64,000 nt of DNA, taken from the NCBI GenBank assembly GCA_965221485.1, contig OZ244893.1, forward strand, positions 1,995,529-2,059,528, read 5' to 3'. The notes under the pieces were generated by a model, which ran no database searches, was not told the DNA's origin, and saw nothing but the letters and a program-made list of their open reading frames with translations. This DNA is from Alphaproteobacteria bacterium. GTDB lineage: Bacteria > Pseudomonadota > Alphaproteobacteria > MPNO01 > UBA830. Shown in pieces: positions 3,494-19,585 of the stretch (the stretch's first letter is position 1; every line of letters begins with the position of its first letter). Position numbers and translations under genes: made by a program.

Positions 3494-3804
3494 CAGCGTG
3501 TTCTCCCCTCTCTTTCCACCACACTCCGGCCGTAAACCTGCGCTGCTGTCGACCGGTTGTGATTATGGCTGCCGCCATGAAAAAGCCGCGATATCTGCGG
3601 CAGATAATACGGATGAACGCCGAGTTCCTTCAGGCGCATGAGATCAAGATGCCGAAATGCCGTCCGTTCGTCTTCAGACAGTCCGTATTCTTCCATCAGG
3701 ACTTCGAGATTTTCGACAAATTGGTTGAATCTCGCCGGATCACGGCGGACTTCGAAAACCATGCGGTTCGCCGGCAGGTCCGGTCTGGTGTCTTCGATTC
3801 CCAT
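3493..3804 (-). CDS. LigA-like small subunit of extradiol dioxygenase
   Basis: The ORF track gives a 202-aa ORF, but the N-terminal ~100 aa is Arg/Cys-rich junk. The internal ATG at 3804 (MGIEDTRPDLPANRMVF...) has a GAGGGA RBS and yields a ~103-aa protein of LigA size, ending where ligB starts. Confidence 0.6.
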   Translation of the reverse strand: MGIEDTRPDLPANRMVFEVRRDPARFNQFVENLEVLMEEYGLSEDERTAFRHLDLMRLKELGVHPYYLPQISRLFHGGSHNHNRSTAAQVYGRSVVEREGRTR

Positions 3805-3890
3805 CACTATGTCCCTCGTCGGTTTCGCGCCCTTCAAACAGGTTGTAGTTTTACCCAACCATAACCCGACGGGGACCAGGGAGAAAGCAA

Positions 3891-5534
3891 GTGACGATAA
3901 CGAATTCGCAAGCCATGACCGGCGGGGAAGCCATTGTGGCCTCTCTCGTGCAACATGATGTCGACACCGTTTTCGGTATTCCCGGTGTACAGCTTGATCC
4001 GCTATTCGCTGCCTTGCATGACGCCCGAAACAGGATACGTGTGATTCACACGCGGCATGAACAGGGAGCAGGATACATGGCACTGGGTTATGCCATGGCA
4101 ACCGGGCGCCCCGGCGTTGCCGTCGTGGTACCGGGACCAGGATTTCTCAACGCAGCATCTGCCATGGCGACCGCCGCGGCTCAAAACGCCCCCCTTCTCT
4201 GCGTCAGCGGACAGATTCCATCCCGTCTGATCGGCAAGGGTACCGGACAGCTCCACGAGATTCCCGACCAGCTGGGGATCGCACAAACCCTGTCAAAGTG
4301 GGCAGCTCGTATCGATACACCCGAAGAAACACCGGCGGTCATGGACGCAGCCTTTTGGCACCTGTCTACGGGGCGGCAAGGCCCGGTAGAGGTCGAAATG
4401 CCCATGGATATCATGCGACAAACCGGCACGGTCACACTCACCGCCCCCGAAACACCCGTATCGCTTGATCAGCCCGTTGCCGAGGATGTCGACCATGCAG
4501 CGCGCATTCTCAAGGAAGCCAAACGCCCCCTGATCGTGGCGGGCGGTGGAACGGTCAATGCGGGATCCGAACTGCTGTCCGTCGCTGATCGATTGCAGGC
4601 TCCTGTTGTGCTGTCGCGCAATGCGCTCGGTGTCATCGACTCCCGGCACCATCTGGCTGCAACCCCTCCACTCGGTCACCGTCTCTGGGCAGATACCGAT
4701 CTCGTGCTGGCAGTGGGGAGCCGCCTCAGCCCCATGATTCCCGGATGGGGGACGGACGCCGGTCTGCGGATTATTAGAATCGATATCGACCCGACAGAAA
4801 TGGTGCGCAATGTGGATCCCGATATCTCCATGCTGTGCGATGCTGCTGTCGGACTTTCGGCGCTTGAAGACGCTCTCTCGTCTCGCGGTGTGCGGCGCCA
4901 AAACCGGGCTATGGAATTGAAAAGGCTGAAAGCACAACTGCGAAACGACCTTGACCGTCTGGATCCTCAGGTTGCGATCATAGAGGCCATGCGCCGGGCT
5001 CTGCCTGAAGACGGGATCTTTGTCGAAGATCTTACACAGATCGGTTATGTGGCAAGGTTCGTATTTCCGGTTTACCAACCGCGAAGCTACATCAACCCCG
5101 GTTTCCAGGGCACGCTGGGCTATGCGGTACCGACGGCAATGGGCGTCAAGATCGGTCAGCCGGACCGGCCTGTGCTCGCGATTTCGGGGGATGGTGGTTT
5201 CATGTTCAATGTCCAGGAGCTTGCGACGGCGGCACAGCACGGAATAGACATTGTCGTGGTCGTCTTCAATGACGGGGCTTACGGCAACGTCAAGCGGCTC
5301 CAGCACCAGGAGTTCGAAGGCAAGGAAATTGCCGTGTCCCTTCGCAACCCCGATCTCATGAAACTTGCGGACGCCTTCGGCATTCAGGGTCTTCGGGCCC
5401 GGGATCCGTCGGAACTCGAGACCATGATCAGCCGGGGCTTCGATACTCCCGGACCCACTCTGATCGAATATGCGCTGGGTGAAGTACCGGATCCCTGGCC
5501 GTTCATCCAGATGGGTCGGGCCCGGGGCGGTTGA
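3891..5534 (+). CDS. Thiamine-pyrophosphate enzyme, acetolactate-synthase-like large subunit family
   Basis: 547 aa with three TPP-enzyme domains. These include the N-terminal pyrimidine-binding GIPGVQLDPLFAAL...HEQGAGYMALGYA and the C-terminal GDGGFMFNVQELATA...NDGAYGNV TPP-binding motif. It is divergent from the ligAB operon. Confidence 0.8.
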   Translation: MTITNSQAMTGGEAIVASLVQHDVDTVFGIPGVQLDPLFAALHDARNRIRVIHTRHEQGAGYMALGYAMATGRPGVAVVVPGPGFLNAASAMATAAAQNAPLLCVSGQIPSRLIGKGTGQLHEIPDQLGIAQTLSKWAARIDTPEETPAVMDAAFWHLSTGRQGPVEVEMPMDIMRQTGTVTLTAPETPVSLDQPVAEDVDHAARILKEAKRPLIVAGGGTVNAGSELLSVADRLQAPVVLSRNALGVIDSRHHLAATPPLGHRLWADTDLVLAVGSRLSPMIPGWGTDAGLRIIRIDIDPTEMVRNVDPDISMLCDAAVGLSALEDALSSRGVRRQNRAMELKRLKAQLRNDLDRLDPQVAIIEAMRRALPEDGIFVEDLTQIGYVARFVFPVYQPRSYINPGFQGTLGYAVPTAMGVKIGQPDRPVLAISGDGGFMFNVQELATAAQHGIDIVVVVFNDGAYGNVKRLQHQEFEGKEIAVSLRNPDLMKLADAFGIQGLRARDPSELETMISRGFDTPGPTLIEYALGEVPDPWPFIQMGRARGG

Positions 5535-6097
5535 CGAATTTGTATTCCTGCACCGAGTTCCGGAACGACCGCATCAGCAGCCTCCGATAATTTGCCAACG
5601 GTGTCTGTCGTCTGACGCGCAATTGCCCCTTCATTTCAGGTTTCGGTGTTGAAGTCATGGCACCCTGCCGCAGCGTGTTGACGATACCACTCGGCTTGCA
5701 GGCAGAGCGTTCTCCCGGTTGTCATCCGGATGTTTTATTCCCGACTGATGGCTAACCATGACGCGCCAATAGACGGAAACAGTACCAAGGGTCCCGGATA
5801 CCTCCAACGACCTGAAGTGGCCGAGGCCTGACACTTGTTCCCTTGAATGGTGCGAGATCTGCGCAGCACGTTTCTGATGACACCCCGGTTATCCGTGAAT
5901 GCCACCAGCTGCCGAACCCGACTGGCGAAAACTTGCCCACGGTTCGAGGCGCCGTGAGTTTCTGACCATGATCCGGAGGGGGTTTCCCGGTGTCAATCGG
6001 GGCATTTTCAACTCCGGTCGCGATCTCCAAAGAGACAACGTTGGGGGCAAATCGACCGGTTCACTTCCCTGCGATCATGGACGCTATGGCTGACCGG

Positions 6098-6814
6098 TCA
6101 GTGAAACTCCATGAGACGGCCGAAGCCCGGAGCCCGGTGGTTGATGTTCAACGTGCGGAGCGCGTGCCAGAGCATGGCCTGATTACTGGTAATGACCGGT
6201 TTCCCGATGTCCTTTTCGATCGGCTCGATCGCTTCGATCGCCCGCACGGCCGTGCAGCTGATGAAGGCGGCATCGGATGCCGCCTCGTCCTGAGCCTTCA
6301 CCCGCCTGTGCCACTCCTCGGGCGCCACCGCCAGCATGGCAGCGGCATCGCCTGCGATTCCCATGCCGGTCTCCGACAAGACCCTGATACCGTTCGCCTC
6401 AAGGTAGCCAACTTCACGATCGTTGGTTTCCTGTATGTAGGGTGTCGTCAGAGTAATTCGCTCGGCTTGCAGTGTGCGGAACGCTGCAAGACAAGCCTTG
6501 GATGTCGATGTGGCCGCCCGATTCGTCGCACCATGGATCCTTTCCAGAATCTCGTCGTCGAATCCCGGCGCGAACATCGAGGCAGCCGTACAATGAAACA
6601 CGATCAGGTCAACGTCAGCATCCGCCAGCAGGTCTGCACCGATCTCAAGGTCGGCCACCATATCCCTGACATCTTCTTCGCGGCTCGAACGCAGTCTCAG
6701 CCGGGTCGTATGAAGGGACACGCCCTTTGGCAGACTCGCCGTTATTTGAGGCTCCGCTGCCTGGTTCACCGACGGGAGGAGCATGCCGATACGGGCCCGA
6801 TCACCGTAGTTCAT
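6098..6814 (-). CDS. Asp/Glu/hydantoin racemase family protein (maleate isomerase / arylmalonate decarboxylase-like)
   Basis: 238 aa. The two catalytic Cys contexts (FHCTAAS, ISCTAVR) are typical of the maleate isomerase/Asp-Glu racemase superfamily. Confidence 0.65.
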   Translation of the reverse strand: MNYGDRARIGMLLPSVNQAAEPQITASLPKGVSLHTTRLRLRSSREEDVRDMVADLEIGADLLADADVDLIVFHCTAASMFAPGFDDEILERIHGATNRAATSTSKACLAAFRTLQAERITLTTPYIQETNDREVGYLEANGIRVLSETGMGIAGDAAAMLAVAPEEWHRRVKAQDEAASDAAFISCTAVRAIEAIEPIEKDIGKPVITSNQAMLWHALRTLNINHRAPGFGRLMEFH

Positions 6815-6850
6815 GACACTTTCCCTGAAACGGCCAGCAGTGCTGCGGCT

Positions 6851-7285
6851 TTACGGATTGATATAGTTGGCAAGGTTTGGCTGCTCCGGTATCCGCTCGA
6901 TTTCAGAATCCATGTGAACCCATGGAAGCGCCCGATCGGCCCAGATATTCAGCTGGATCGGAACCCAACTGGGATCATCCAGTGTGCCAGCATAAACGAC
7001 CCTCAGATGCGGGCGTGCTACCGACGCCGAATACAGGACCGTACCGCACTTGTCACAAAAATTGACGGAAATCCTGTTGCCGCTGTCGGCAACGCGGGTT
7101 CGGGATCTGGGCTCACCCTTCTTCAGTTTCAGCGCCTCGGTCCGAAGCTGAACCGAGATTCCGAACGCACTCCCGGTTCGGCGCTGGCATTCCTTGCAAT
7201 GGCAGCAATAGGACAGCAACGGCTTCTCTGTCATTTCGTATCGTATCTCGCCACAAGCGCAGCCGCCTTCGTAGGGTGGAGACAT
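6851..7285 (-). CDS. GFA (glutathione-dependent formaldehyde-activating / CENP-V-like) zinc-binding family protein
   Basis: The GFA Cys pattern is present (CACGEIRYE...CCHCKECQRRTGSAF...CDKCG). I chose the internal ATG at 7285 (MSPPYEGG) with an AAAGGGA RBS over the longer track ORF. Confidence 0.7.
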   Translation of the reverse strand: MSPPYEGGCACGEIRYEMTEKPLLSYCCHCKECQRRTGSAFGISVQLRTEALKLKKGEPRSRTRVADSGNRISVNFCDKCGTVLYSASVARPHLRVVYAGTLDDPSWVPIQLNIWADRALPWVHMDSEIERIPEQPNLANYINP

Positions 7286-7845
7286 GTTCAGTCCCTTTCG
7301 TTTCGAAACCCGGGAAAGTGTCATCCGGCCCTCTTGCCCGGGCCTTCGCGACAACGCCAATCATACAATGAAAAGCGGTCTATGATTCGTCAAATCTCGC
7401 GAATTTGAAGCTTGGCCAGAAGGAGCCAGAAACTCAGCTACCGCAACATTCACAGCTATGGGCGGAAGTATTGAACCACTGCCCCGACACGCAAAAACCG
7501 TGGTGTGGCATGACGATCCGGGGTCTGCCGGTTTCGTCATTATCTACGGGGCTGATCAGCGCGCGGTGAAAACTTCCGAAGCCACGCCAGGACGTCGGTC
7601 CCCAAATGACTATAATTGTTAGCGGCAACAATAAATCTCCCATTTTGGAGTGACAATCGGTGAAATTGCGTCAGTCGGATCCAAGTAAACATTCCCGAGG
7701 GTGTGTACAGCTGCTGACGTACAGCCGGATTCGACATGTGTGTCGAAAATGTTCCACGCTCCATTGCCGAGACGGAAAACCATACCGTCCCCGAAGACAA
7801 CACCAAGAAGCGTCAGCTCAGGCTCGCCCTTCGATCGAGGATTTC

Positions 7846-8232
7846 CTAACTCTCTAGTGGATTGAGCTCCGCTCTCACCTTGCGAGCCCAGTCTTCGCCC
7901 TGCCTCTGATCTGACCTGGCGACCCTCGGTAAATCGCGGAAAACAATCCGGGATACACGTTTCCGCGTTCCCTCAGGCGAACGCTCGTATCCGATGACCC
8001 AACGAAAGATGCTGCCCAAGACCATGCGCGAAGCGTCGTGTTCCGAAATTTCCGTCATCGGAATGATGGCTTCCTCGCTCTCGTACTCGCGGCCGGCTGT
8101 CAGATCGACCAACCTCGCCACGAACTCTTCGTCGCCAATATCGACCACATGTCCTTCCCACTGTTGCAATGCTTGCAGCGTAGGCCATCTGGCAACCCGA
8201 GCGACGGGTGGGGAAAAGTTAACTATCGGCAT
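7846..8232 (-). CDS. Hypothetical protein (island accessory ORF)
   Basis: ~128 aa from the internal ATG at 8232 (MPIVNFSPP...). I recognise no family. It lies in the lower-GC segment downstream of the ATPase/partner pair. It is weakly supported. Confidence 0.3.
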   Translation of the reverse strand: MPIVNFSPPVARVARWPTLQALQQWEGHVVDIGDEEFVARLVDLTAGREYESEEAIIPMTEISEHDASRMVLGSIFRWVIGYERSPEGTRKRVSRIVFRDLPRVARSDQRQGEDWARKVRAELNPLES

Positions 8233-8408
8233 GGTGTCCAAAGTATTGGGCAAAACAGTAGATGAGTGTAGAGTATCTGCTGTGTTGGCCCCTCGGCAAT
8301 AAGAGTTAGTCTCCACATGCGATCGTGTTTGCCTGACTGCGTCGTCCAATTCCAATCCCGGACTGGCGTGCTTGTCGTCGGGATTCTTTATGCGCAAATC
8401 CAAGCGCC

Positions 8409-9239
8409 TCACCGCAGTGGGCTGACCGGACGGCTCCATGGCTGCCCCCGCCCCGCAGTCGCCAGGGCCATCACATGATCGACGATGGCATCGGCGCGTC
8501 TAACCGACAATTCAAAGCCATTCTCGAGAAACCCGTGTAGCGCCGCGCGGCCGTCCGCTGCCGGGCTATCGATCAAAACGTGATCATTGATGTGAACGTA
8601 GATTTCGTTCCCTCTGTCTCCAATTTGAACCGACGGCTCTACCGTTAGTTTGATCTGTCCTCCCTAGGGTCTGCCCTCTGGCCGAATTTGCCTCATGGTC
8701 AGCGATCCCATCTCACCTTTAGATCCACCTGAACGGAACACATCGGTCCATTCACCCCAAGGCCCTACCGGCGCCAATAATCTGGCGGTCCGATCCGATG
8801 CTGTGGCGCCCAGCGCTCGAAAATGGATTCCGCGGTTGACGCCAAGCGCTTTGACTGGCGAATGGGAGAGCAGTTCCTTGAACACGCGAACCACCAGATC
8901 GCATATACCAACGTGTAAATCCTGCTGTGTCCTGGAGCAAAATCTGTCGTATGTCGCTCGAAACTGAAGCCATTCGGTGGAAAACGCCACTAGGTGACGA
9001 TGAGCGACCTGAATATCAGCGTATTCCACAACGGCTCTTGGCAGGATTTCATGACGAGCGAACCAAGGCGGCGTGAAGATTGCCAGATTGAAACACACCT
9101 GTGAAAGCCATCCAGGTACCCGGTGCTCCACCAATTCCACGGTGCACCCTGGCGACGGACGGCTGCGAAAACCTGTCCCAGTCCACCCGCGCCGTCGCGG
9201 TCGAGGTAATCGACAAGGTGGGGTGTTGGCCCACCCCAA
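8409..9239 (-). pseudogene. Partner gene of the AAA15 ATPase: TOPRIM-like (DUF4435 / split-OLD-like) nuclease candidate, interrupted by an in-frame TAG
   Basis: A TTG start at 9239 sits 14 nt after the ATPase stop (three frames open here; TTG/191-aa frame chosen as most protein-like, boundary low-confidence). The 191-aa ORF ends at a TAG at 8664–8666. The same frame stays open for another 84 codons to a TGA at 8409–8411. The read-through product would be ~275 aa. It contains VVEYADIQ (candidate TOPRIM Glu) and LIDSPAADGRAAL (candidate DxD...G metal site). The N-terminal 40 aa are Arg-rich, and the region after residue ~140 is Gly/Arg-rich, so additional frameshifts or decay are possible. Confidence 0.4.
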
Positions 9240-9252
9240 GCCCAGATACGCT

Positions 9253-10509
9253 TCACTGGGGCTTGCCCATACGCTCGAGCAACTTGAACCGCCTTACCTC
9301 GATGTCAGCCCGGCCAAGGGCAGGATCGCGCGGCGACAGTTCCAACAAACTTTGCCGCAGTTCGATAGCCTCCGGGGACTCGCCCATGCCGTTCGAAACC
9401 AGGTTCCTGTAATGCACCAGAATCTCTGCGAACTTGTTACCGTTTGGCCGCTCGTCTACCCCCATCACTGTCTCAAGCACATCGCCCGCTTCAGCGCCAT
9501 AGGTGGGTGCGGAGACCGACTCCGGCACGATTCCGTGCTGGTCTCGCCGAAGCCCTACGACATGTTCCGGTTTGACGGTCGTCAATACCGTCGGACTGTT
9601 CGTGGAAACGATAAACTGCGTGTTGGGAAACGTCCTCGCCAGGTCGTCGAGAACCCTCTGCTGCCACAAAGGATGTAAATGGAGTTCGATCTCGTCGATA
9701 AGCACGACCGCTTCTGACTGAAGCGGATCGTCGAGATGCGGATTCCCCTGAGCCATCCGCCGCGCCAGGTCAGCAGATAGGGCAAGCATGATGCTGCAAC
9801 CGCCACCCAACTGCTCGATAGAAAGTTCTTCCGACTGTAGGGTAACCACGAAACGAAGTGGACCGAACGCGATCTTTGGCTCAGATACGTCGGGGAGCAC
9901 GGATTCGATGGCCGCGCGTACAGCTTTCAGCTCCTTGAGTTGATGGCCGAAGTCGCGACGCTCCTTTTGTTCTCGCAGCTCTTCATTCTCTTTGGCGTAA
10001 AACCACTTGAAGAAATCCCGAAAGTCGGTCCGGGCAGACAATGCGCCCTGCAATGCCGCATAGCGCGTAAACTCGACCTTCAGCCCACTGCGGTACCGCG
10101 GCTGATCAAGGACAGCCCGATCTGCATTGTAAAAAGCCAAAATTGGCAGGTCGAGTGGCTGTGTCTTTTCCCGATCCGCATTCACGATGGCGGCCATCGC
10201 CTCCCTCAACTCCCGGTGTGCGGGCGTTCTTAGCGACCTCCCCAAGCGTCGGTCCCACGCGATTCCGTTCACGGCCGTCAGCCCCACCCGTGCCGGCTGT
10301 AGGTCGCGAGCGTCCGACCTGCGAAATCCAATACCTGACACATCGGGCAAAAGCAGGGAAATGCTTCCAAGCCCCGTTGCGATCGCGCTCAGCACACTGG
10401 TCTTTCCATGCGCATTGTTGCCGTGAAGAACCGTCAGATCGGGATTCAGCGTCAGGTCGAGCTTTTCGATCGCGCGATAGTTCTCGATCTCGACACGCGC
10501 CAGTTTCAT
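9253..10509 (-). CDS. AAA15/AAA21 (ABC-type, OLD / PtuA / AriA-like) ATPase without a nuclease domain
   Basis: The ATG at 10509 has a GGTGGAG RBS; the track ORF begins 19 codons earlier. The N-terminus is MKLARVEIENYRAIEKLDLTL with a Walker A LHGNNAHGKTSVLSAI. A long helical insertion follows, then Walker B/D-loop VVLIDEIELHLHPLWQQRVLDDL and STNSPTVL. ~130 aa follow the Walker B, too short for a fused TOPRIM. Confidence 0.75.
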   Translation of the reverse strand: MKLARVEIENYRAIEKLDLTLNPDLTVLHGNNAHGKTSVLSAIATGLGSISLLLPDVSGIGFRRSDARDLQPARVGLTAVNGIAWDRRLGRSLRTPAHRELREAMAAIVNADREKTQPLDLPILAFYNADRAVLDQPRYRSGLKVEFTRYAALQGALSARTDFRDFFKWFYAKENEELREQKERRDFGHQLKELKAVRAAIESVLPDVSEPKIAFGPLRFVVTLQSEELSIEQLGGGCSIMLALSADLARRMAQGNPHLDDPLQSEAVVLIDEIELHLHPLWQQRVLDDLARTFPNTQFIVSTNSPTVLTTVKPEHVVGLRRDQHGIVPESVSAPTYGAEAGDVLETVMGVDERPNGNKFAEILVHYRNLVSNGMGESPEAIELRQSLLELSPRDPALGRADIEVRRFKLLERMGKPQ

Positions 10510-11332
10510 GATCTCCACCCCGTCGTCCCGTATTCCATCAACAGGCATCACAGCGCGGTCGGACACTGTGCGGGTTCCTTCTGCACACCTTCATGCCGAG
10601 CCTGAAGGCTGACCCCTCACAGCCCATCGCCTCTACATCCTCCGCCAAGGCGCGAATGCTATAGCGGCTGCGCATGGGCGCCAGGGTAATAGACGCAACT
10701 CCAGCGTGAGCGTCATGTCTTCAGATCATCCAAAAATGTTCGCTCAAGACTCACCGTTCCCGGAGGATCGGTCGATCCGGTCAACGTCCCACTCAGCCAA
10801 CGCGGGCAAATACTTCTCGATCACGTCGCCAATACGGGCACCATAAACCTCTCGCCTGGTCAACGAGGCAACCAACATCAGTTCGTGCTCGTCTAGAGTG
10901 ATGAAGACTTAGCGCCTCCCGTGGAACCAAATTCTGCAGACTCTGGTTCAACTGGCCGCGCAAAATCCGATTTGCCAGGCGCTCTGTCGATCATAGCACC
11001 TGGGGTGCGCAAAGCATTTCGTTTCTTCCCCGCCGTTCCCTGACCGGGTAACCGGCCTCGCAAACAGCCTCGCCATCATCCATCGGTGGGGATTCACATG
11101 AATCGGATGGATAACAGATAGAAAGGAGGTTTGAACCATTGCAGTTCAAGAAGTCCGTAACAGCAGTGGCCTCCAACCAGCCGATGTCCCTGCCCCGGAA
11201 CCGCTCCGGAGACCTGACCCCTTGGTGTCAACCCCTGACCGGAAAATGACAAGACGAGTCGGCGGGGCTGGATACCAGCGCCCCTGTCACTGTCTTGCAG
11301 CACTTCACCAAAATGAGGTTTATAATGCCCAC

Positions 11333-12421
11333 ATGTATCTTGAGAATTGCTGGTATGTTGCTGCCTACTCCCACGAACTTGGCAAGGGCCAGGCGCTGGG
11401 CCGTACGCTGTTGAACCGGCCCGTGGTCCTGTTTCGCCTGTCTGACGGAACGGCCACAGCACTTGAAGACCGTTGCTGTCACAGGCAACTTCCCCTGTCG
11501 TGCGGCCAGGTAACCGGTGACCGAATACGTTGCGGTTATCACGGACTGGAATTCGACGCATCCGGTGCCTGTGTCGCCATACCCGGCCAGTCCCGAATTC
11601 CGCCCGACGCGTCGGTTCCGTCCTGGCCAGTCGTCGAGCGCCACGGTTTCCTTTGGCTCTGGCCGGGAGAAAAGGCACTTGCCGATACCAGCCTGATACC
11701 CGACTGGTGGTGGAGCAGTCATCCTGACTGGGCATTCAATCCGGGAGCGCTTCTCCACATTGACTGCCACTATCAGCTGATTGTTGACAATCTCCTCGAC
11801 CTTTCGCATCTCGGCTATGTCCATGCCAACAGTCTCGGTAACAGCGCCATTGTCGATTTTCCGGTCCGGACCGAGAAAGACGGCAGCATTGTCCGAATGA
11901 CTCGCTGGATCATGGATCGTCCACCTCCACCCCTTTACAGGAAAATCGGAGATTTTCAGGGCAACGTGGACCGTTGGCAGATCGTGGAAACGATCCCGCC
12001 TGGCCATACGACCATATTCGCCGGCTGCGGCCCCTCCGGGTCCGGAGACTCCCGAAACTGGGAAACATATGGAAACGCATTTCATCTCCGGGTCCTGAAT
12101 GCCCCGACACCGGAAACCGGGACGTCATCCTGGTATTTTTACGGCCATGCCTGGACTCCGGGGAACGGTGACCCCGCCCTCAAACAGCAGATGTATGACG
12201 ACTTTCTTCAGATATTCCATGAGGACGTGGCGATACTTGAAGCGCAACAGCGTTCCATGACGCGTGATCCGGAACGGCCTCTTGTCGATATTTCCGTTGA
12301 TGCGCCCGGACTCGCTGCGCGACGTGCCCTGGCCAAGCACATATCGGCCGAGAACATTCGAAGGTGTCAGGCATCCACAGCCACCGAAACCGATCCGGCG
12401 ATCGCTGTGGCACACCGGTAA
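11333..12421 (+). CDS. Rieske [2Fe-2S] non-heme-iron oxygenase alpha subunit, VanA / phthalate-family (paralog 1)
   Basis: The start was corrected to the ATG at 11333 (MYLENCWYVAAYSHEL); the track ORF has a 37-aa spurious extension. It has the Rieske motif CCHRQLPLSCG...CGYHG and the mononuclear-iron region NLLDLSHLGYVH. At ~362 aa it matches VanA-type single-component oxygenases. Confidence 0.8.
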   Translation: MYLENCWYVAAYSHELGKGQALGRTLLNRPVVLFRLSDGTATALEDRCCHRQLPLSCGQVTGDRIRCGYHGLEFDASGACVAIPGQSRIPPDASVPSWPVVERHGFLWLWPGEKALADTSLIPDWWWSSHPDWAFNPGALLHIDCHYQLIVDNLLDLSHLGYVHANSLGNSAIVDFPVRTEKDGSIVRMTRWIMDRPPPPLYRKIGDFQGNVDRWQIVETIPPGHTTIFAGCGPSGSGDSRNWETYGNAFHLRVLNAPTPETGTSSWYFYGHAWTPGNGDPALKQQMYDDFLQIFHEDVAILEAQQRSMTRDPERPLVDISVDAPGLAARRALAKHISAENIRRCQASTATETDPAIAVAHR

Positions 12422-12651
12422 CGATGCCGGGATCACGTTACTGGAAGGTACGGTTGCTCGACATCGGCGAACTGCTGACGATTTGCGGTATCACGAATTC
12501 CCTGGTTACCTGTGGGCCTCGAACCGGCCACCGGAACGGCGGACGCCATCGAAAACAGCTCTGCAACAGGCAAGCCGGAACATTGCAGCAGTGTGACAGC
12601 GCCACGCATAGCACCCACCGGAACCGGCAAAACAGCCGCGGCAAGAGACAG

Positions 12652-13461
12652 GTGAGGACTTGCCCCATCCGGATCACCGGATGCTGGGCGATTGTGTCCG
12701 TTCTCCTGGTCTTAAATCCCGCGTTCGCAGAAAACACCCGTTCACTGGATCCCGGGTCCGGTCTGCGGAAGAGCTGCGCCGGCATGGGGGGAGACTGCCG
12801 GAACGTGGCCATCCCGGACCATGTCAAAACCTATTTTACTTTGGGTGTCATGCACAGCCAGGGCCTTGGCGCAGACAGGGACCCCGCACGCGCCGCGGAA
12901 TGGTTTGGACGTGCGGCGGAACTTGGCCATCCGGAAGCGCAGTATCTGCTTGGTGCCATGTATGAAGAAGGTCGGGGTGTTCCCCTTGATGACAGCGCGG
13001 CAGCTTCCTGGTACCGGAAAGCTGCAGCCCAGGGCCACATCGTGGCCCAGTACAACCTGGGTGTCATGCTTGTCGAGGGCCGTGGCGTCAAAACCAATGA
13101 CACGGACGCTGTCAGCTGGCTGCAGCGGGCCGCGGAACAGGGGTCACCCGACGCACAGAACGTTTTGGGAATCCTCTATTCCCGGGGGCAGGGTGTCGAA
13201 GCCAATGATGAGCAGGCTGCCCACTTGTTCAGACTGGCTGCCGAACAGGGAAACCCGGACGCCCAGAACAATCTGGGTCTCCTCTATCGGAACGGACGCG
13301 GAGTTGAAATCAGTCCCGTCCGTGCCAAGGCATGGCTGAAACTTGCCGCAAGCAACGGCCACCAGGGGGCCACAAGACCACTTGAAGAAATAGAGAAGCA
13401 GATGTCAGCCACCGAGAATGCCGAAGCGGAGCAACTGTTTGAAGCCTTGCAGGCCAGATGA
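12652..13461 (+). CDS. Sel1-repeat (SLR/TPR-like) secreted protein
   Basis: At least 6 Sel1 repeats are present (AQYLLGAMYEEGRGVPLDDSAAASWYRKAAAQG, etc.). The signal peptide MRTCPIRITGCWAIVSVLLVLNPAFA comes from a GTG start at 12652. The track's 365-aa ORF carries a spurious N-terminal extension overlapping the upstream gene. Confidence 0.7.
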   Translation: MRTCPIRITGCWAIVSVLLVLNPAFAENTRSLDPGSGLRKSCAGMGGDCRNVAIPDHVKTYFTLGVMHSQGLGADRDPARAAEWFGRAAELGHPEAQYLLGAMYEEGRGVPLDDSAAASWYRKAAAQGHIVAQYNLGVMLVEGRGVKTNDTDAVSWLQRAAEQGSPDAQNVLGILYSRGQGVEANDEQAAHLFRLAAEQGNPDAQNNLGLLYRNGRGVEISPVRAKAWLKLAASNGHQGATRPLEEIEKQMSATENAEAEQLFEALQAR

Positions 13462-13663
13462 CCCCGCCAGTCGTAGTCATACTGTTCCATAAAACATCTC
13501 TGCCGGTTGTGGGGCCAGTTGCCTTCCGGCCCTCCTCTGATCCGAAGGCGATGAGGCGCGGTCAATCGCCAGCGCTTCTCCACATGCCGGCAACAGGACC
13601 GATGACAGGCGGGACACCCGCTTCCGGATTTCGTATTCTGAAACCGTCTGACTGCTGGGAGGA

Positions 13664-14719
13664 ATGACTATGTTCTTGCAGAACGCTTGGTATGTCGGCG
13701 CCTGGGGCACTGAGGTCGGCCGCCAGACTCTCCTGCGCCGTGTTCTTCTTGATGAGCCTGTCGTCTTCTACCGTCGCGAAGATGGCTCGCCGGTCGCACT
13801 TGCCGACAAGTGCGCCCATCGACATGCACCGCTGTCGCAAGGCCGTCTCGTAGGCAACGATATTGAATGCCCCTATCACGGCCTGACCTATGACGGCGCG
13901 GGCAACTGCGTCCGTGTCCCGGGCCAGTCAACAATCCCTCCGGGATGCCGGATTCGTTCCTACCCCGTTGTCGAACGCTATCAGTGGATCTGGATCTGGA
14001 TGGGGGATCCGGCCCTGGCCGACCCAGATGACATCGAGGACTTTCACTGGATGGACAGTCCCGGCTGGCGTGCCAAGGGCGAGCTGATGCATCTCGAAGC
14101 CAACTACAAGCTGCTCGTCGAGAATCTTCTCGATCTCTCGCACCTGACCTTCATTCACAAGACGACGCTCGGGACTGACGCCATTGCGGAGACACCGATG
14201 AAATTCGAGCGCGGGGATCGACATGTCACCGTGACCCGCTGGATCATGAATTCAACGGCTCCGGTGTTTTTCCAGAAGGCCGGCGGATTCACACCCGATG
14301 AGGCCGTCGATCGCTGGCAGCATATCACCTGGACTCCTCCTGCTTTCGTACGCCTCGATATTGGTGCGGCACGCGCCGGCACAGGTGCCATCAATGGCGA
14401 CCGGTCCCAGGGTTTCACCATGCGAAATCTAAATGCCATCACCCCGGAAACTGACAAGACCACCCATTATTTCTGGGCCCAGGCCCATGATTTCCGCGTC
14501 GACGAACCATGGATCACGGACCTTCTGGTCCAGAACATTCATGAGGCGTTTCTCGAGGATCTTGCGATCATCGGGTTGCAGCAGCGCAACCTGGATACCG
14601 GAACCACCTTGCCGCGAGTTGATATCAATCATGATGGCGGCGGGCTTCAGGCCATTCGGATGCTTGACGACTTCATAGAGGCCGATCAACGCGTTGCCAC
14701 AGCCCAGGCTGCGGAATAG
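13664..14719 (+). CDS. Rieske [2Fe-2S] non-heme-iron oxygenase alpha subunit, VanA-family (paralog 2)
   Basis: 351 aa with the N-terminus MFLQNAWYVGAW and the Rieske motif CAHRHAPLSQG...CPYHG, plus NLLDLSHLTFIH. A GGGAGG RBS precedes the ATG. It is clearly paralogous to 11333..12421. Confidence 0.85.
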   Translation: MTMFLQNAWYVGAWGTEVGRQTLLRRVLLDEPVVFYRREDGSPVALADKCAHRHAPLSQGRLVGNDIECPYHGLTYDGAGNCVRVPGQSTIPPGCRIRSYPVVERYQWIWIWMGDPALADPDDIEDFHWMDSPGWRAKGELMHLEANYKLLVENLLDLSHLTFIHKTTLGTDAIAETPMKFERGDRHVTVTRWIMNSTAPVFFQKAGGFTPDEAVDRWQHITWTPPAFVRLDIGAARAGTGAINGDRSQGFTMRNLNAITPETDKTTHYFWAQAHDFRVDEPWITDLLVQNIHEAFLEDLAIIGLQQRNLDTGTTLPRVDINHDGGGLQAIRMLDDFIEADQRVATAQAAE

Positions 14720-14746
14720 CCGACGGGCCGCACCCTCAACAAAAAA

Positions 14747-14774
14747 CCGGGCGCCTGACAGCGCCCGGTTGTGC
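14747..14774. terminator. Rho-independent terminator hairpin shared by convergent genes
   Basis: CCGGGCGC-ctgaca-GCGCCCGG is a perfect 8-bp stem. A6 precedes it on the + strand, giving a U-tract for the minus-strand BI-1 transcript. TTGTGC follows it on the + strand. It lies between the Rieske paralog 2 (ends 14719) and the BI-1 gene (ends 14798). Confidence 0.7.
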
Positions 14775-14797
14775 AGAAGCCAATTGGGCTGTTGCAA

Positions 14798-15556
14798 TCA
14801 GCGGCGCTCACCGAACAGGTGCAGCAGCATGATGAACAGGTTGATAAAGTCGAGATAAAGTCTCAGAGCACCGGAGATCGCCAGCTTCGCCTGGGTCTCC
14901 TCATTATAGTGTTCCGCGTACTCATTCTTGATGTTCTGGGTGTCATAAGCCGTCAGGCCGACAAAGACGAGAACACCGATGACGGAAATCGCGAACTGAA
15001 GCGCTGAACTCTGCAAAAACAGGTTCACGATCACAGCAATGATGACGCCGATCAGCCCCATCATCAGAAACCCGCCAAATCTCGAAAGATCCCGCTTGGT
15101 GGTATAGCCCCACAGGCTCATCGCCGCAAAGGTTCCAGCCGTTATGAAGAATACGCGCGCGACACTCTCTCCGGTGAACACAATCAGGACCGTCGCCAGG
15201 GATGCTCCCATCAGCGCGGCGTAGATCCAGAATACCGTCTGCGCCGTGGATGACCGGAGCGCATGCAGTCTCGCACTGAGAAAGAAGACAAGCCCAAGCG
15301 GCAGCAGCATGACCACCCATTTGAGGCCGGTCGCAAACAGTGTGTTTCCGAACGATGTGAGCGCCACGATCTGACCGGCGTCATTCATCTGCACCGACAT
15401 CTGGAACACCAGCACAGCAACAATTCCGGTCAGGGCCAGCCCGGACCCCATGTAATTGTAGACGCGGAGCATATGAGCCCGCAGCCCGGCATCGAACTCG
15501 TCCCGATCGAGGGCCCGCGCCGATTCGTAAGCCTGATTACCCCTTGTCAAAGCCAT
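14798..15556 (-). CDS. Bax-inhibitor-1 / YccA (TMBIM) family membrane protein
   Basis: 252 aa with seven hydrophobic segments. It has the characteristic BI-1 C-terminal half and the N-terminal LRAHMLRVYNYM. Confidence 0.8.
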   Translation of the reverse strand: MALTRGNQAYESARALDRDEFDAGLRAHMLRVYNYMGSGLALTGIVAVLVFQMSVQMNDAGQIVALTSFGNTLFATGLKWVVMLLPLGLVFFLSARLHALRSSTAQTVFWIYAALMGASLATVLIVFTGESVARVFFITAGTFAAMSLWGYTTKRDLSRFGGFLMMGLIGVIIAVIVNLFLQSSALQFAISVIGVLVFVGLTAYDTQNIKNEYAEHYNEETQAKLAISGALRLYLDFINLFIMLLHLFGERR

Positions 15557-15643
15557 CGAAAGACCCCTTGAAGTCTATTGAACAATGTGACCCGAATATG
15601 GGGAGTGCCGACCAGAAAATCAACCGTCATCACCGGACATCAA

Positions 15644-18205
15644 CTACTCGTTCCGAAGCAGCGGTGCAGCACGGTTCCCCAAGGCAAGCCAGGTTCCGTA
15701 AAATCCGAGACCCAGCGTAATCGAAACCGCGATTATCGTCGTGAGCAGGACAGCCCATGGATCAAACGTGAATGAAAAACGCATGACGTGGGTGACGACA
15801 CTCCAGGCCGCCACCGAACCCGCAAGTCCCGCAACAGCGGCTGTCACAACTCCGAGCAGGCCATACTCGAGAAGAAGTGCTTTCAAGACCCGCCATCTTG
15901 TCGCTCCCAGCACCTTGAGCACGACCGCATCATAAACCCGGCGCCGGTGACCGCTGGCGATTGCGCCGGCCAGAACCAGACCACCCGCCACGATGGCCAC
16001 AACAGCCGTCATGCGAAGGGCAAACCCCAACCGCCCGAGAAATGCGTTGACGGTATCAAGAACATCCCGCACGCGAACTGTTGTTACGGCGGGAAATGCG
16101 GCTGCAACAGCGCGCTCGATCTGTTCTTCCCGCTGTGGTTGCGTATGCACGGTAGCAAGAAGCGTCTGGGGCGCCGATCTCAGGGGGTTCGGCGAAAAGA
16201 TAAAGACAAAATTCATGCCCAGAGAGCCCCATTGAACATTCCGCAAATTGGTAATCTGCCCTGTGATATTCCGACCGAGAATGTTGATGGTCAGGCTGTC
16301 GCCAATGCCGAGGCCGAGTTCATTCGCTGTGCGAGCTGCCATCGATATCAGTGGCGGACCTTCATAGTCCGACGACCACCATTCGCCAGCAACCACCGTT
16401 TCCCCTTCGGGTCGTTCTGCCGCCCATGTAACGCCGCGATCGCCTCGTAAAACCCAGCGCCCGTCTGGTGGAACAGCTTCAGCACGCGCGGGCTTTCCGT
16501 TGAGGCGCACCACCCGGCCGCGCAGCATCGGCGTGTGGCGAAGTTCCGCCGCAGAATCCGCGGACTGCACCACTTCAGAAAAGTCACGCACCTGATCAGG
16601 TTGAACGTCGATAAAGAAGTATCCGGGGGCACGCTCGGGCAAGCTTCTCGTTATCTGCTTTTCGAGATTCACCTCGACGAGGGCTACGGTTACGAGAACT
16701 GTCAGGCCGAGGCCAAGCGAAAGCACGACGCTTGTCGTCGGCGCACCGGGCCGGTGAAGGTTGGCCAGCGCCAGCCGCCAGCCCATACGTGACACCCGTC
16801 CCGAAAGAAAAGCGGCGCAGCCTCGCACCACAAAGCCCGCCGCAACAAACAGGACGATTGCGGCCAGGGCACCGGCCACGAACCAGACCGCGATCATTTT
16901 CACCACAGCAGTCGCAATCGCCAGTCCTGCCAGCGCGATCAGCAGCACAATGCTCGCAACCATGAAAGGCCAGCGAGGCAGGCTGCGATCGGGCGATACG
17001 GTGTTGCGGAACAGGGCGGCTGCCGGAAGATCGCATGCCCGCGCGATCGGCCATATGGAAAATGCCAGTGCCGTCAGAAGTCCGAAGGCGGCAGCCAGGA
17101 ACAGGGGTTCGGCATAGAGATCCACACGCGTCGCCAAAGGCAAGGTCTCACGCAAGACATCGGCAAGCGCAATCGGCGCCAAACCTCCGATCACGAGTCC
17201 GATCGCAATGCCGACAAGGGCCATGACGGTCACCTGTATCAGGTAGAGCGAAAAGACCAGCCGGGCCGAAGCCCCCAGGCATTTGAGGGTCGCGATAGTG
17301 GCCATTTTTCCGGAAAGGAAACTGCGCACTGCATTTCCGACACCAACCCCGCCCACAAGCAACGCGGTCAAACCAACCAGTGTCATGAACAATGTGGTGC
17401 GCCCCACGAACCGTTCGATGGTCGGAGAGACATTGCGGCGATCACGAACGTTCCACTGGGCATCCGGGAACGCCCGCTCTAGATCCTGCTTCCAGATATC
17501 CAGTTCACCGGGATTGTTCAGACGAACCCGATAAAAGAACCAGACCTGGCTCCCTGGCCGAATCAATCCGCTTTCGGCAAGCGAATCAGATGAAGCGATC
17601 AGCCTCGGCCCCAGCTGAATCGCACGGGCACCGGAGACACGATCAGGTTCCCGTTCAATGATGCCCCGGATCTCGAATTTTGTTTCACCGATCTGAAGCG
17701 TGTCGCCCGGCTCGACCCCCAGTCGCCTCAGAAGAGAGGAGTCGACCGCCGCTCCCCACAAACCCTTTCGCTTTTCAAACAGCGCCCCGGGAAGCATATG
17801 AGGTTGCGTTTCCAGTGATCCATAAAGGGGATAGGCTCCGTCCACCATCTTCATTTCGACAAGAGACCGTTTTTCACCGGCCTCGGTCCGCGCCATGGAT
17901 CGGAGATATACCACTCGGCCAACGTCGCCTGCGCGCTCCAGCCACAACCGCTGTTCCGGGGAAATATCCCGATGGGTCATCCGCAGCGAAGCGTCGCCCC
18001 CCAGCATTATGGCGCCGTCCCTTTCCAGTCCGGCGATCACCGAGGCGGCAATGGAACCCACGCCGGCAATGGCGGCAACGCCGATGGCAAGACAGGACAG
18101 AAATACGCCAAATCCGCGCGATCCGTTCCGCAGCTCACGGCGGGCAAGAACGAGGGCGTTGATCAGGCCGTTCGCCCGGGAACTCCGCACTGCCGTTCCG
18201 TTCAC
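15644..18205 (-). CDS. ybbP: FtsX-like ABC transporter permease with duplicated FtsX domains (YbbP-type)
   Basis: 853 aa with two FtsX-type 4-TM modules separated by large periplasmic domains. It overlaps the start of the upstream ATPase gene by 4 nt. Confidence 0.8.
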
Positions 18206-18903
18206 GAATTTCGCCGGTCGTCGCGAATACGGCCGTCCTCAAGTTCCACGACCCGGCCGCATCGGTCGGCGAGCGATGTGTTGTGGGTAATCAGCATGAG
18301 CGTAGCATCCTGCTCCGAGCGCAGCATGAACAGAAGATCGATAACCTCACCGCCCGTTCGCCCGTCAAGATTCCCCGTCGGCTCATCAGCAAGAATCAGG
18401 CGGGGCTTCGTCACGATGGCGCGAGCGAGTGCCACCCGCTGCTGTTCCCCTCCGGAAAGCTGGCCCGGATAATGGGTCAACCGGTGATCGAGGCCCACCG
18501 AACCCAGCGCCTGCCGGGCCCGGTCAAAGGGACTGTCCATGCCAGCCAGTTCGACGGGTACGGCCACATTCTCCAAGGCGTTCATGGTGGGAACAAGGTG
18601 GAAATTCTGGAATACAATACCGATATGATCTCCCCGAAACCGTGCGAGATCGTCTTCGTCCAGAACGGCCAGATCCTGTTGAGCAACAGAGATTCGACCC
18701 GCCGTCTGGCGTTCAAGCCCCCCGATCAGAAGCATCATGGATGTCTTTCCGGAGCCCGAGGGTCCTACAATACCAACGGTTTCTCCGACACTGATATCGA
18801 GTGAAATACCATTGAGGATATTGACGAGACCCGCTGCACTCTTCAGCTTTAGCTCTACGTTTTCGAGGATAACCATGACTTCTTTAACTGTCTGCCCAGA
18901 CAA
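18202..18903 (-). CDS. ybbA: ABC transporter ATP-binding protein (YbbA-type)
   Basis: Walker [10 protein letters not shown], signature [14 protein letters not shown], Walker [13 protein letters not shown] and the H-loop. Confidence 0.9.
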
Positions 18904-18904
18904 G

Positions 18905-19585
18905 CTGGCATTACATCAACACTCTAGCGGTGGCTGCAGCTTTCCTCCAGATAAACGATTTTTTCGCATTCTCAAGACGTGGATCGCAGGATTTCTGGTT
19001 GCCCTGGCGATTTTGATGACAGCCAACCCTGCCCACCCCAAACGGTTGCTGGTCATGGGCGACAGTCTCGTATCCGGTTACGGACTTCCGAACGAGGACA
19101 GTTTCATCAGGCGCCTCGAGGGTGCCCTTCTGGAAAGCGGACTAGCGGTCACAGTACTGGACGGCGGCGTGTCCGGAGATACCACCGCCGGTGGATTGGC
19201 CCGTGTCGCCTGGAGTCTGGCCGACAAACCAACCCATGCGCTGGTCGAACTTGGCGCCAACGACGCACTTCGGGCCATTTCACCGGAAACCACCCGGAAC
19301 AATCTCGACAGGATTCTCTCGGCTTTTGAGAATGCCGGTGTGAAGGTTCTGCTTGCGGGTATGTACGCACCGCCGAATCTGGGGAAAACCTATGCAAACG
19401 CTTTCCGGCGCCTCTATCCTGAGCTCGCCAGCAAGTACCGGATCGAACTGTACCCGTTCTTTCTTGACGGTGTGGCAACAGTACCGACACTGAACCAGCC
19501 TGATGGCATTCACCCCAATGCTGAAGGCGTTGCCGTGATTGTGGACAGAATTCTCCCTTACGTAATCCGCCTTCTGAATCAATAA
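18905..19585 (+). CDS. tesA: SGNH/GDSL arylesterase-thioesterase (TesA-like)
   Basis: GDSL block LLVMGDSLVSGYG, GxND (LGANDALR) and the DGIHPN catalytic His block. It is divergent from ybbA, as in E. coli tesA–ybbA–ybbP. The start is uncertain. The hydrophobic signal-like segment (RILKTWIAGFLVALAILMTA) has no canonical in-frame start before the ATG at 19016, so the 5' coordinate is approximate. Confidence 0.7.
   Translation: MALHQHSSGGCSFPPDKRFFRILKTWIAGFLVALAILMTANPAHPKRLLVMGDSLVSGYGLPNEDSFIRRLEGALLESGLAVTVLDGGVSGDTTAGGLARVAWSLADKPTHALVELGANDALRAISPETTRNNLDRILSAFENAGVKVLLAGMYAPPNLGKTYANAFRRLYPELASKYRIELYPFFLDGVATVPTLNQPDGIHPNAEGVAVIVDRILPYVIRLLNQ

Follow-up and report, generated by a model that had tools for sequence, protein, structure and literature searches.

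The minus-strand ORF flagged next to an ATPase gene in the stretch of DNA analyzed here (the window, 64,000 nucleotides in all) is very probably a dead pseudogene within a relic of two defense cassettes, and not a conditionally expressed nuclease. Its parent is an uncharacterized family of ~231-aa proteins, which we name p231. The decay suspected in the first-pass annotation is borne out by three lesions: an in-frame TAG, a 5' truncation, and a cut MBL-fold gene nearby. We propose that positions 7637 to 10702 of the minus strand represent a ~3-kb relic of cassettes of the kind embedded in Hma systems (DUF499/DUF1156 methylase/SNF2 helicase), in which a deletion would have joined a Septu pair, ptuA-ptuB, to a trio consisting of p231, a second gene (p196), and an MBL-fold hydrolase. 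The features of the relic, read 5' to 3' along the minus strand, are as follows.

10562–10702, minus strand: DUF7680 fragment, residues ~100–146 of ~159, forming the upstream edge of the relic.
9253–10566, minus strand: ptuA-like gene (Septu) for an ABC ATPase of the AAA_15/AAA_21 type, apparently intact, with its likely start at Met20 (10509).
9129–9256, minus strand: ptuB stub, the first ~43 codons, with a GTG overlapping the ptuA TGA and frameshifts near 9189 and 9173.
9093–9128, minus strand: deletion junction of 12 codons, EHRVPGWLSQVC, matching neither PtuB nor the p231 N-terminus MRIEPEISGVSVVLLG.
8667–9092, minus strand: 5' part of the p231 pseudogene, family positions ~18–159, with its own start codon and first beta-strand gone.
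8664–8666, minus strand: premature TAG, a sense codon in 78 of 78 distinct intact homologues.
8409–8663, minus strand: 3' part of the p231 pseudogene, 84 open codons and a TGA, family positions ~161–231, overlapping the start of p196 by 31 nt.
7846–8439, minus strand: p196, the second gene of the trio, a full-length ORF of 197 aa with all family-invariant residues kept.
7637–7891, minus strand: stub of the MBL-fold gene, the first ~85 of ~370 codons, forming the downstream edge of the relic.

The flagged frame extends from 9239 to 8409 on the minus strand. A TTG at 9239 opens 191 codons that end at the TAG at 8664–8666, beyond which another 84 codons stay open up to a TGA at 8409–8411, and translation confirmed that the TAG is the sole interruption. 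The proposal that the two halves are one gene holds, as homology to a single protein family extends through the codons before the TAG and the 84 that follow it. We likewise found no plausible start after the TAG, the nearest in-frame candidate being a TTG at 8576, 29 codons on. The GGAGG that follows the TAG, remarked on earlier, is not a ribosome-binding site and instead represents the codons GGA GGA for a near-invariant Gly-Gly of the family.

A search of a protein collection returned 15 intact relatives of 227–240 aa at 47–64% identity, together with the 158-aa gene call of the locus itself. In the alignment these 15 proteins run past the TAG column by ~70 residues that match the window's post-TAG codons. 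Versions of 270–300 aa had been anticipated for the intact gene; the relatives are shorter, at ~231 aa. We then scanned one genome per species, which gave at least 200 relatives, and took the best 80, corresponding to 78 distinct intact proteins of 215–250 aa. None of the 78 ends naturally at the TAG, and their residues in that column are P (25), A (14), L (12), S (8), and Q (3), with T, V, E, and others also present. The closest homologue, in locus L002, reads AGA CCC CAG GGC where the window reads AGA CCC TAG GGA, so that a single C>T transition explains the stop. Identity to the L002 protein is 62% upstream of the TAG and 66% (71 aligned residues) downstream, indicating no additional decay of the 3' part.

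The damage to the coding sequence extends beyond the stop. Of 44 alignment columns with conservation of 95% or more, 10 differ in the window copy, 7 of them within the homologous body. The other 78 copies differ at a median of 1 column and at no more than 6; two intact homologues reach 6, and we regard the excess as moderate. Full-length p231 proteins are ~231 aa long and begin with the conserved N-terminus MRIEPEISGVSVVLLG-FNPAIFTPAWF, whereas in the window tblastn homology begins only at 9092, corresponding to family position ~18, and is broken by the TAG at ~160. An exhaustive profile search, which collected 2,326 cluster representatives (50% identity) of p231 at E≤1e-3, also matched the product of this locus only from profile position 18. 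MAFFT suggested a 6-codon in-frame deletion at the p231 N-terminus, which we rejected because the segment concerned is derived from ptuB and is non-homologous.

These comparisons bear on whether the TAG could be a sequencing or assembly error in a p231 copy that otherwise works. A change of one base, CAG to TAG, would suffice for this, and the 84 undamaged codons downstream would fit it. The TAG and the same sequence are nevertheless present in a second assembly, ENA ERZ26695467 contig_43 (locus L001), which possibly derives from the same population or project, and the stop is therefore not a one-off assembly glitch. Over the 15,381 bp that contig_43 shares with the window (3760–19139), the sole difference is an A5/A6 homopolymer at 12135; this shows that the data are not error-free, but the difference is an indel rather than a substitution. 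Even with a sense codon restored, p231 would have neither its start nor the ~17 codons that open the family, and the MBL gene would still be a stub. We consider an error highly improbable. The homopolymer itself falls within a gene for a VanA-like Rieske oxygenase (ORF 11222–12421, plus strand), which is an intact 399 aa in the window and split in the gene calls of contig_43. This oxygenase gene borders the interval that holds the relic, with GFA/Amdase genes on the other side.

The open frame beyond the stop could alternatively mean that the TAG is read through, by a suppressor tRNA, recoding, or leaky termination, to yield a conditional full-length protein working with PtuA. Termination at a TAG is less than maximally strong when the next base is G. 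Against such decoding, the absence of a stop from the column in all 78 homologues means that there is no conserved recoding site, and TAG terminates 7 of the 37 long ORFs in the window, as expected of a normal stop. A tRNA scan of the 64-kb window found no tRNA gene. Any read-through product would still be chimeric at its N-terminus and lack the first beta-strand, the cassette would lack its MBL component, and p231 is never the partner of PtuA in the other loci surveyed. The conditional read-through nuclease of the first-pass annotation thus becomes irrelevant given the lost first ~17 codons and the truncated MBL gene, and we attach scarcely any weight to it. Promoter and terminator scans and a GC profile of the window were uninformative.

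The 5' end of the flagged ORF is accounted for by its upstream neighbor. The ptuA product matches PADLOC PtuA (PDLC00311) over its full length with an E-value of 1.9e-109 and contains Pfam AAA_15 and AAA_21; its NCBIfam PtuA score of 267 bits lies below the 500-bit equivalog cut-off of that model. It is 73–74% identical, again over its full length, to PtuA proteins that precede PtuB in three other loci (L086–L088), where a 249-aa HNH PtuB begins at a GTG overlapping the ptuA stop. Intact PtuB is also found in the related loci L034 and L036, and the PtuB proteins of these relatives score strongly with PADLOC PtuB and weakly, below the Pfam cut-off, with HNH_5. The mechanical ptuA ORF carries a 19-codon N-terminal extension (from a GTG at 10566) that overlaps the DUF7680 fragment; homologues begin at the Met corresponding to 10509.

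In the window, the same overlapping GTG at 9256 begins VKRIWAWGGPTPHLVDYLDRDG, which aligns to PtuB residues 1–22 of L088, L086, and L036 with scores of 52–62 that none of 500–1000 shuffles reached. Frameshift-aware protein-to-DNA alignment extends the match to 43 codons with scores of 77–81, and the second part alone was equaled by 0–2 of 200 shuffles. Alignments using tblastn with the distant PtuB proteins of L034 and L036, and local alignments of the stub at the DNA level, were weak or non-significant, and the stub was established only through the closer PtuB proteins and the frameshift-aware alignment. The rest of ptuB, ~205 codons, is deleted, and the HNH motif with it. The locus thus shares with Septu a full-length PtuA-like ABC ATPase and, for 43 codons, the overlapping-start arrangement of ptuB; it differs in that PtuB is destroyed by two frameshifts and by the loss of the HNH region, leaving no intact HNH nuclease beside the ATPase. 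The flagged ORF is not PtuB and contains no HNH motif.

Judging by these alignments, the 191-aa TTG ORF arose by accident as a chimera of ptuB stub (partly out of frame, partly in frame), junction, and p231 codons 18–159. The extent first reported for the gene is wrong, and the N-terminal ~50 codons of the ORF lie outside the family. All three minus-strand frames are open across ~9049–9234, as described earlier, and the ambiguity of the N-terminal frame noted at that time follows from the chimeric nature of the ORF. The 12-codon junction is explained by neither PtuB nor p231 and counts as evidence against our reconstruction.

The flagged ORF had also been regarded as the partner of the ATPase. 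Relatives of this PtuA pair with the HNH protein PtuB, whereas p231 heads another cassette, and PtuA never lies directly upstream of p231 in the surveyed p231 loci. We considered PtuA-p231 as a recurrent pair and rejected it, the combination being absent from 82 p231 loci and from the three closest PtuA loci examined. A truncated product of 158–191 aa could still have been exapted from the chimeric ORF as a new partner or modulator of the orphan PtuA. ptuA looks intact despite the loss of ptuB, the ORF lies directly downstream of it on the same strand, and orphan PtuA genes persist elsewhere, as in locus L079, where only a ptuB stub accompanies PtuA. Yet neither a convincing ribosome-binding site nor a coupled start serves the ORF; a coupled GTG does exist at 9256, but it opens a different frame that ends at 8990. 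It carries substitutions at invariant family positions, its arrangement is absent from every other genome searched, and its product would lack both halves required by the predicted pseudo-symmetric fold. Such an exaptation seems to us very unlikely, and a dead pseudogene remains the preferred reading. In L079 (12846–14269), PtuA is 69% identical to that of the window, ptuB is cut to ~19 codons, and the stub directly abuts an oppositely oriented hsdR gene of type I restriction.

p196, downstream of p231, has an N-terminal half that is disordered and, at its C-terminus, an OB-fold/cold-shock-like barrel. Beyond it, tblastn with the MBL proteins of L002, L003, and L005 identified residues 1–85 of the MBL protein (E 6.5e-10). 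This homology ends precisely at the expected HxHxDH motif, with the window reading IVTPKWEIYCCR followed by a stop and relatives reading IVATHWHDDHIRG, and the adjacent MBL gene therefore lacks the motif. At the other edge, a DUF7680 protein from L003, confirmed by Pfam, matches across 47 aa at 57% identity (E 1e-10). In Hma systems, hmaC (DUF499) is followed by the small DUF7680 gene; apart from this fragment, tblastn with the L003 core proteins found no hmaA, hmaB, or hmaC in the 64-kb window.

We also asked whether p231 is a nuclease, the identity suggested by the first-pass annotation. The read-through protein has no DUF4435, TOPRIM, or HNH match in Pfam, NCBIfam, or PADLOC; scans of it and of an intact homologue (P0002) against these collections and PHROGs returned nothing, including for HNH profiles. 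The flagged ORF matches no TOPRIM or DUF4435 profile and shows no TOPRIM fold bearing acidic metal-binding motifs. The "DxD..G" and "VVEYADIQ Glu" strings that had been singled out are present, but they fall in variable or semi-conserved alignment columns and correspond to no nuclease profile. More broadly, no Pfam, NCBIfam, PADLOC, or PHROG model covers the p231 family; the p231 profile matched nothing among PDB sequences below an E-value of 0.08, and p231 had no sequence match to HEC-07 models.

The AlphaFold model of P0002 (pLDDT 86.7, pTM 0.83), in which the first beta-strand spans residues 5–16, resembles no nuclease fold, and Foldseek against the PDB found only weak, non-nuclease neighbors. 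The nearest are alpha/beta folds of the AdoMetDC-like, TBP-like, and phosphagen-kinase C-domain types, at TM-scores of at most 0.33 and identities of at most 11% with no catalytic residues mappable. The predicted structure thus suggests resemblance to these folds rather than membership in them.

Taken in sequence, the lesions could have arisen as follows. The deletion joining the two cassettes would have taken out the bulk of ptuB along with ~17 codons at the start of p231. Two frameshifts in the ptuB stub, the CAG>TAG change, and the substitutions at conserved p231 positions would have come afterwards. A further deletion would have cut the MBL gene after codon ~85, and the Hma core genes would have been lost. 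On this reconstruction the ancestral locus probably lay within an Hma system, and the pseudogene is presumably not expressed. Set against it are the full length and conserved residues of ptuA and p196, indicating that decay is recent or partial; both genes may retain residual function. The 84 post-TAG codons, free of stops and frameshifts and conserved like the upstream part, are also compatible with a very recent mutation and, in a formal sense, with read-through. The premature stop, 5' truncation, frameshifted stubs, and truncated partners are the same traits seen in nonsense and deletion pseudogenes of decaying defense islands, and the sole oddity here is that the parent family is uncharacterized.

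We next considered the intact trio. p231 is the first gene of a p231, ~196-aa p196, and ~370-aa MBL trio in nearly all of 80 loci, and the MBL protein carries HWHDDH and HHGS motifs. The trio occurs in at least 200 species-representative genomes spanning more than 10 phyla, between which its proteins are 50–69% identical. Nearly all of the 80 hosts examined are MAGs of lineages that we take to be typical sponge symbionts (Latescibacterota, Poribacteria, Entotheonella, Binatia, SAR202, Spirochaetia, and others). Half of the copies are free-standing: in 41 loci the surrounding 10 kb contain no Hma gene, and those examined are flanked by housekeeping genes. In ~20 of 82 loci the trio instead sits between DUF499/DUF7680 and DUF1156/SNF2 genes, identified by PADLOC as HmaC, HmaB, and HmaA, and a further ~10 loci have a DUF7680 fragment.

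Hma is treated as a group of DUF499-centered BREX-related systems (NAR 2026 gkag035) and is reported to host embedded defense cassettes frequently, Septu above all (bioRxiv 10.1101/2024.01.29.577857). The slot from hmaC/DUF7680 to hmaB/hmaA is occupied by the trio, Septu, and GmrSD cassettes alike, and in L034 and L036 a PtuA-PtuB pair forms a separate cassette within the same Hma locus as the trio. The window retains a DUF7680 fragment and differs from Hma in lacking hmaA, hmaB, and hmaC. As in the window, Septu cassettes that have left Hma seem to retain a piece of DUF7680. In L086 and L087 a DUF7680 gene or fragment lies upstream amid housekeeping genes, and the intact 249-aa PtuB with its GTG start (~6270–7020) was missed by public gene calls, which report smaller ORFs.

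Occupancy of the embedded Hma slot suggests a defense role for the trio, and recurrence both inside Hma/BREX-related systems and free-standing is the signature that Payne et al. used to nominate defense systems. The trio is absent from the nine named HEC systems (HEC-01 to HEC-09) as described by Payne et al. 2024 and matches no PADLOC v2 model, nor, as a cassette, any model in Pfam, NCBIfam, or PHROGs; p231, p196, and the trio MBL protein belong to no named PADLOC system beyond weak MBL matches. We therefore put forward, tentatively and at slightly under even odds, that the intact trio is a new self-contained system against phages or mobile elements, of which the window carries a dead copy. 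Of the three products, only the MBL protein is obviously an enzyme; p196, through its OB-fold, may bind nucleic acids. Mechanistically, detection of foreign nucleic acid by p231 and the OB-fold protein could plausibly trigger release of the MBL nuclease.

For annotation, the flagged ORF should neither be joined across the TAG nor labeled as a nuclease or a PtuA partner. Embedded cassettes can outlast their host system as scrambled relics and mislead guilt-by-association annotation, a case in point being this ATPase-adjacent ORF that resembled an "effector". The locus is valuable for drawing attention to a family and a three-gene cassette that lack annotation, and the parent trio, a more interesting by-product than the pseudogene, may merit separate study.

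Damaged p231 genes were also seen elsewhere: a p231-p196 read-through fusion without MBL in L014 (9998–11296), a frameshifted copy without MBL in L085 (9998–10691), and early stops in L067 (codon 26) and L055 (codon 134). In three Hma loci, L034 (9735–18293), L003 (6105–8001), and L036 (8958–12174), short core-gene duplications lie between the embedded cassettes, comprising ~30–45 N-terminal codons of hmaB/DUF1156, C-terminal DUF7680 fragments, and a C-terminal DUF499 fragment. It looks as if recombination through the ends of the flanking core genes stacks or exchanges the cassettes.
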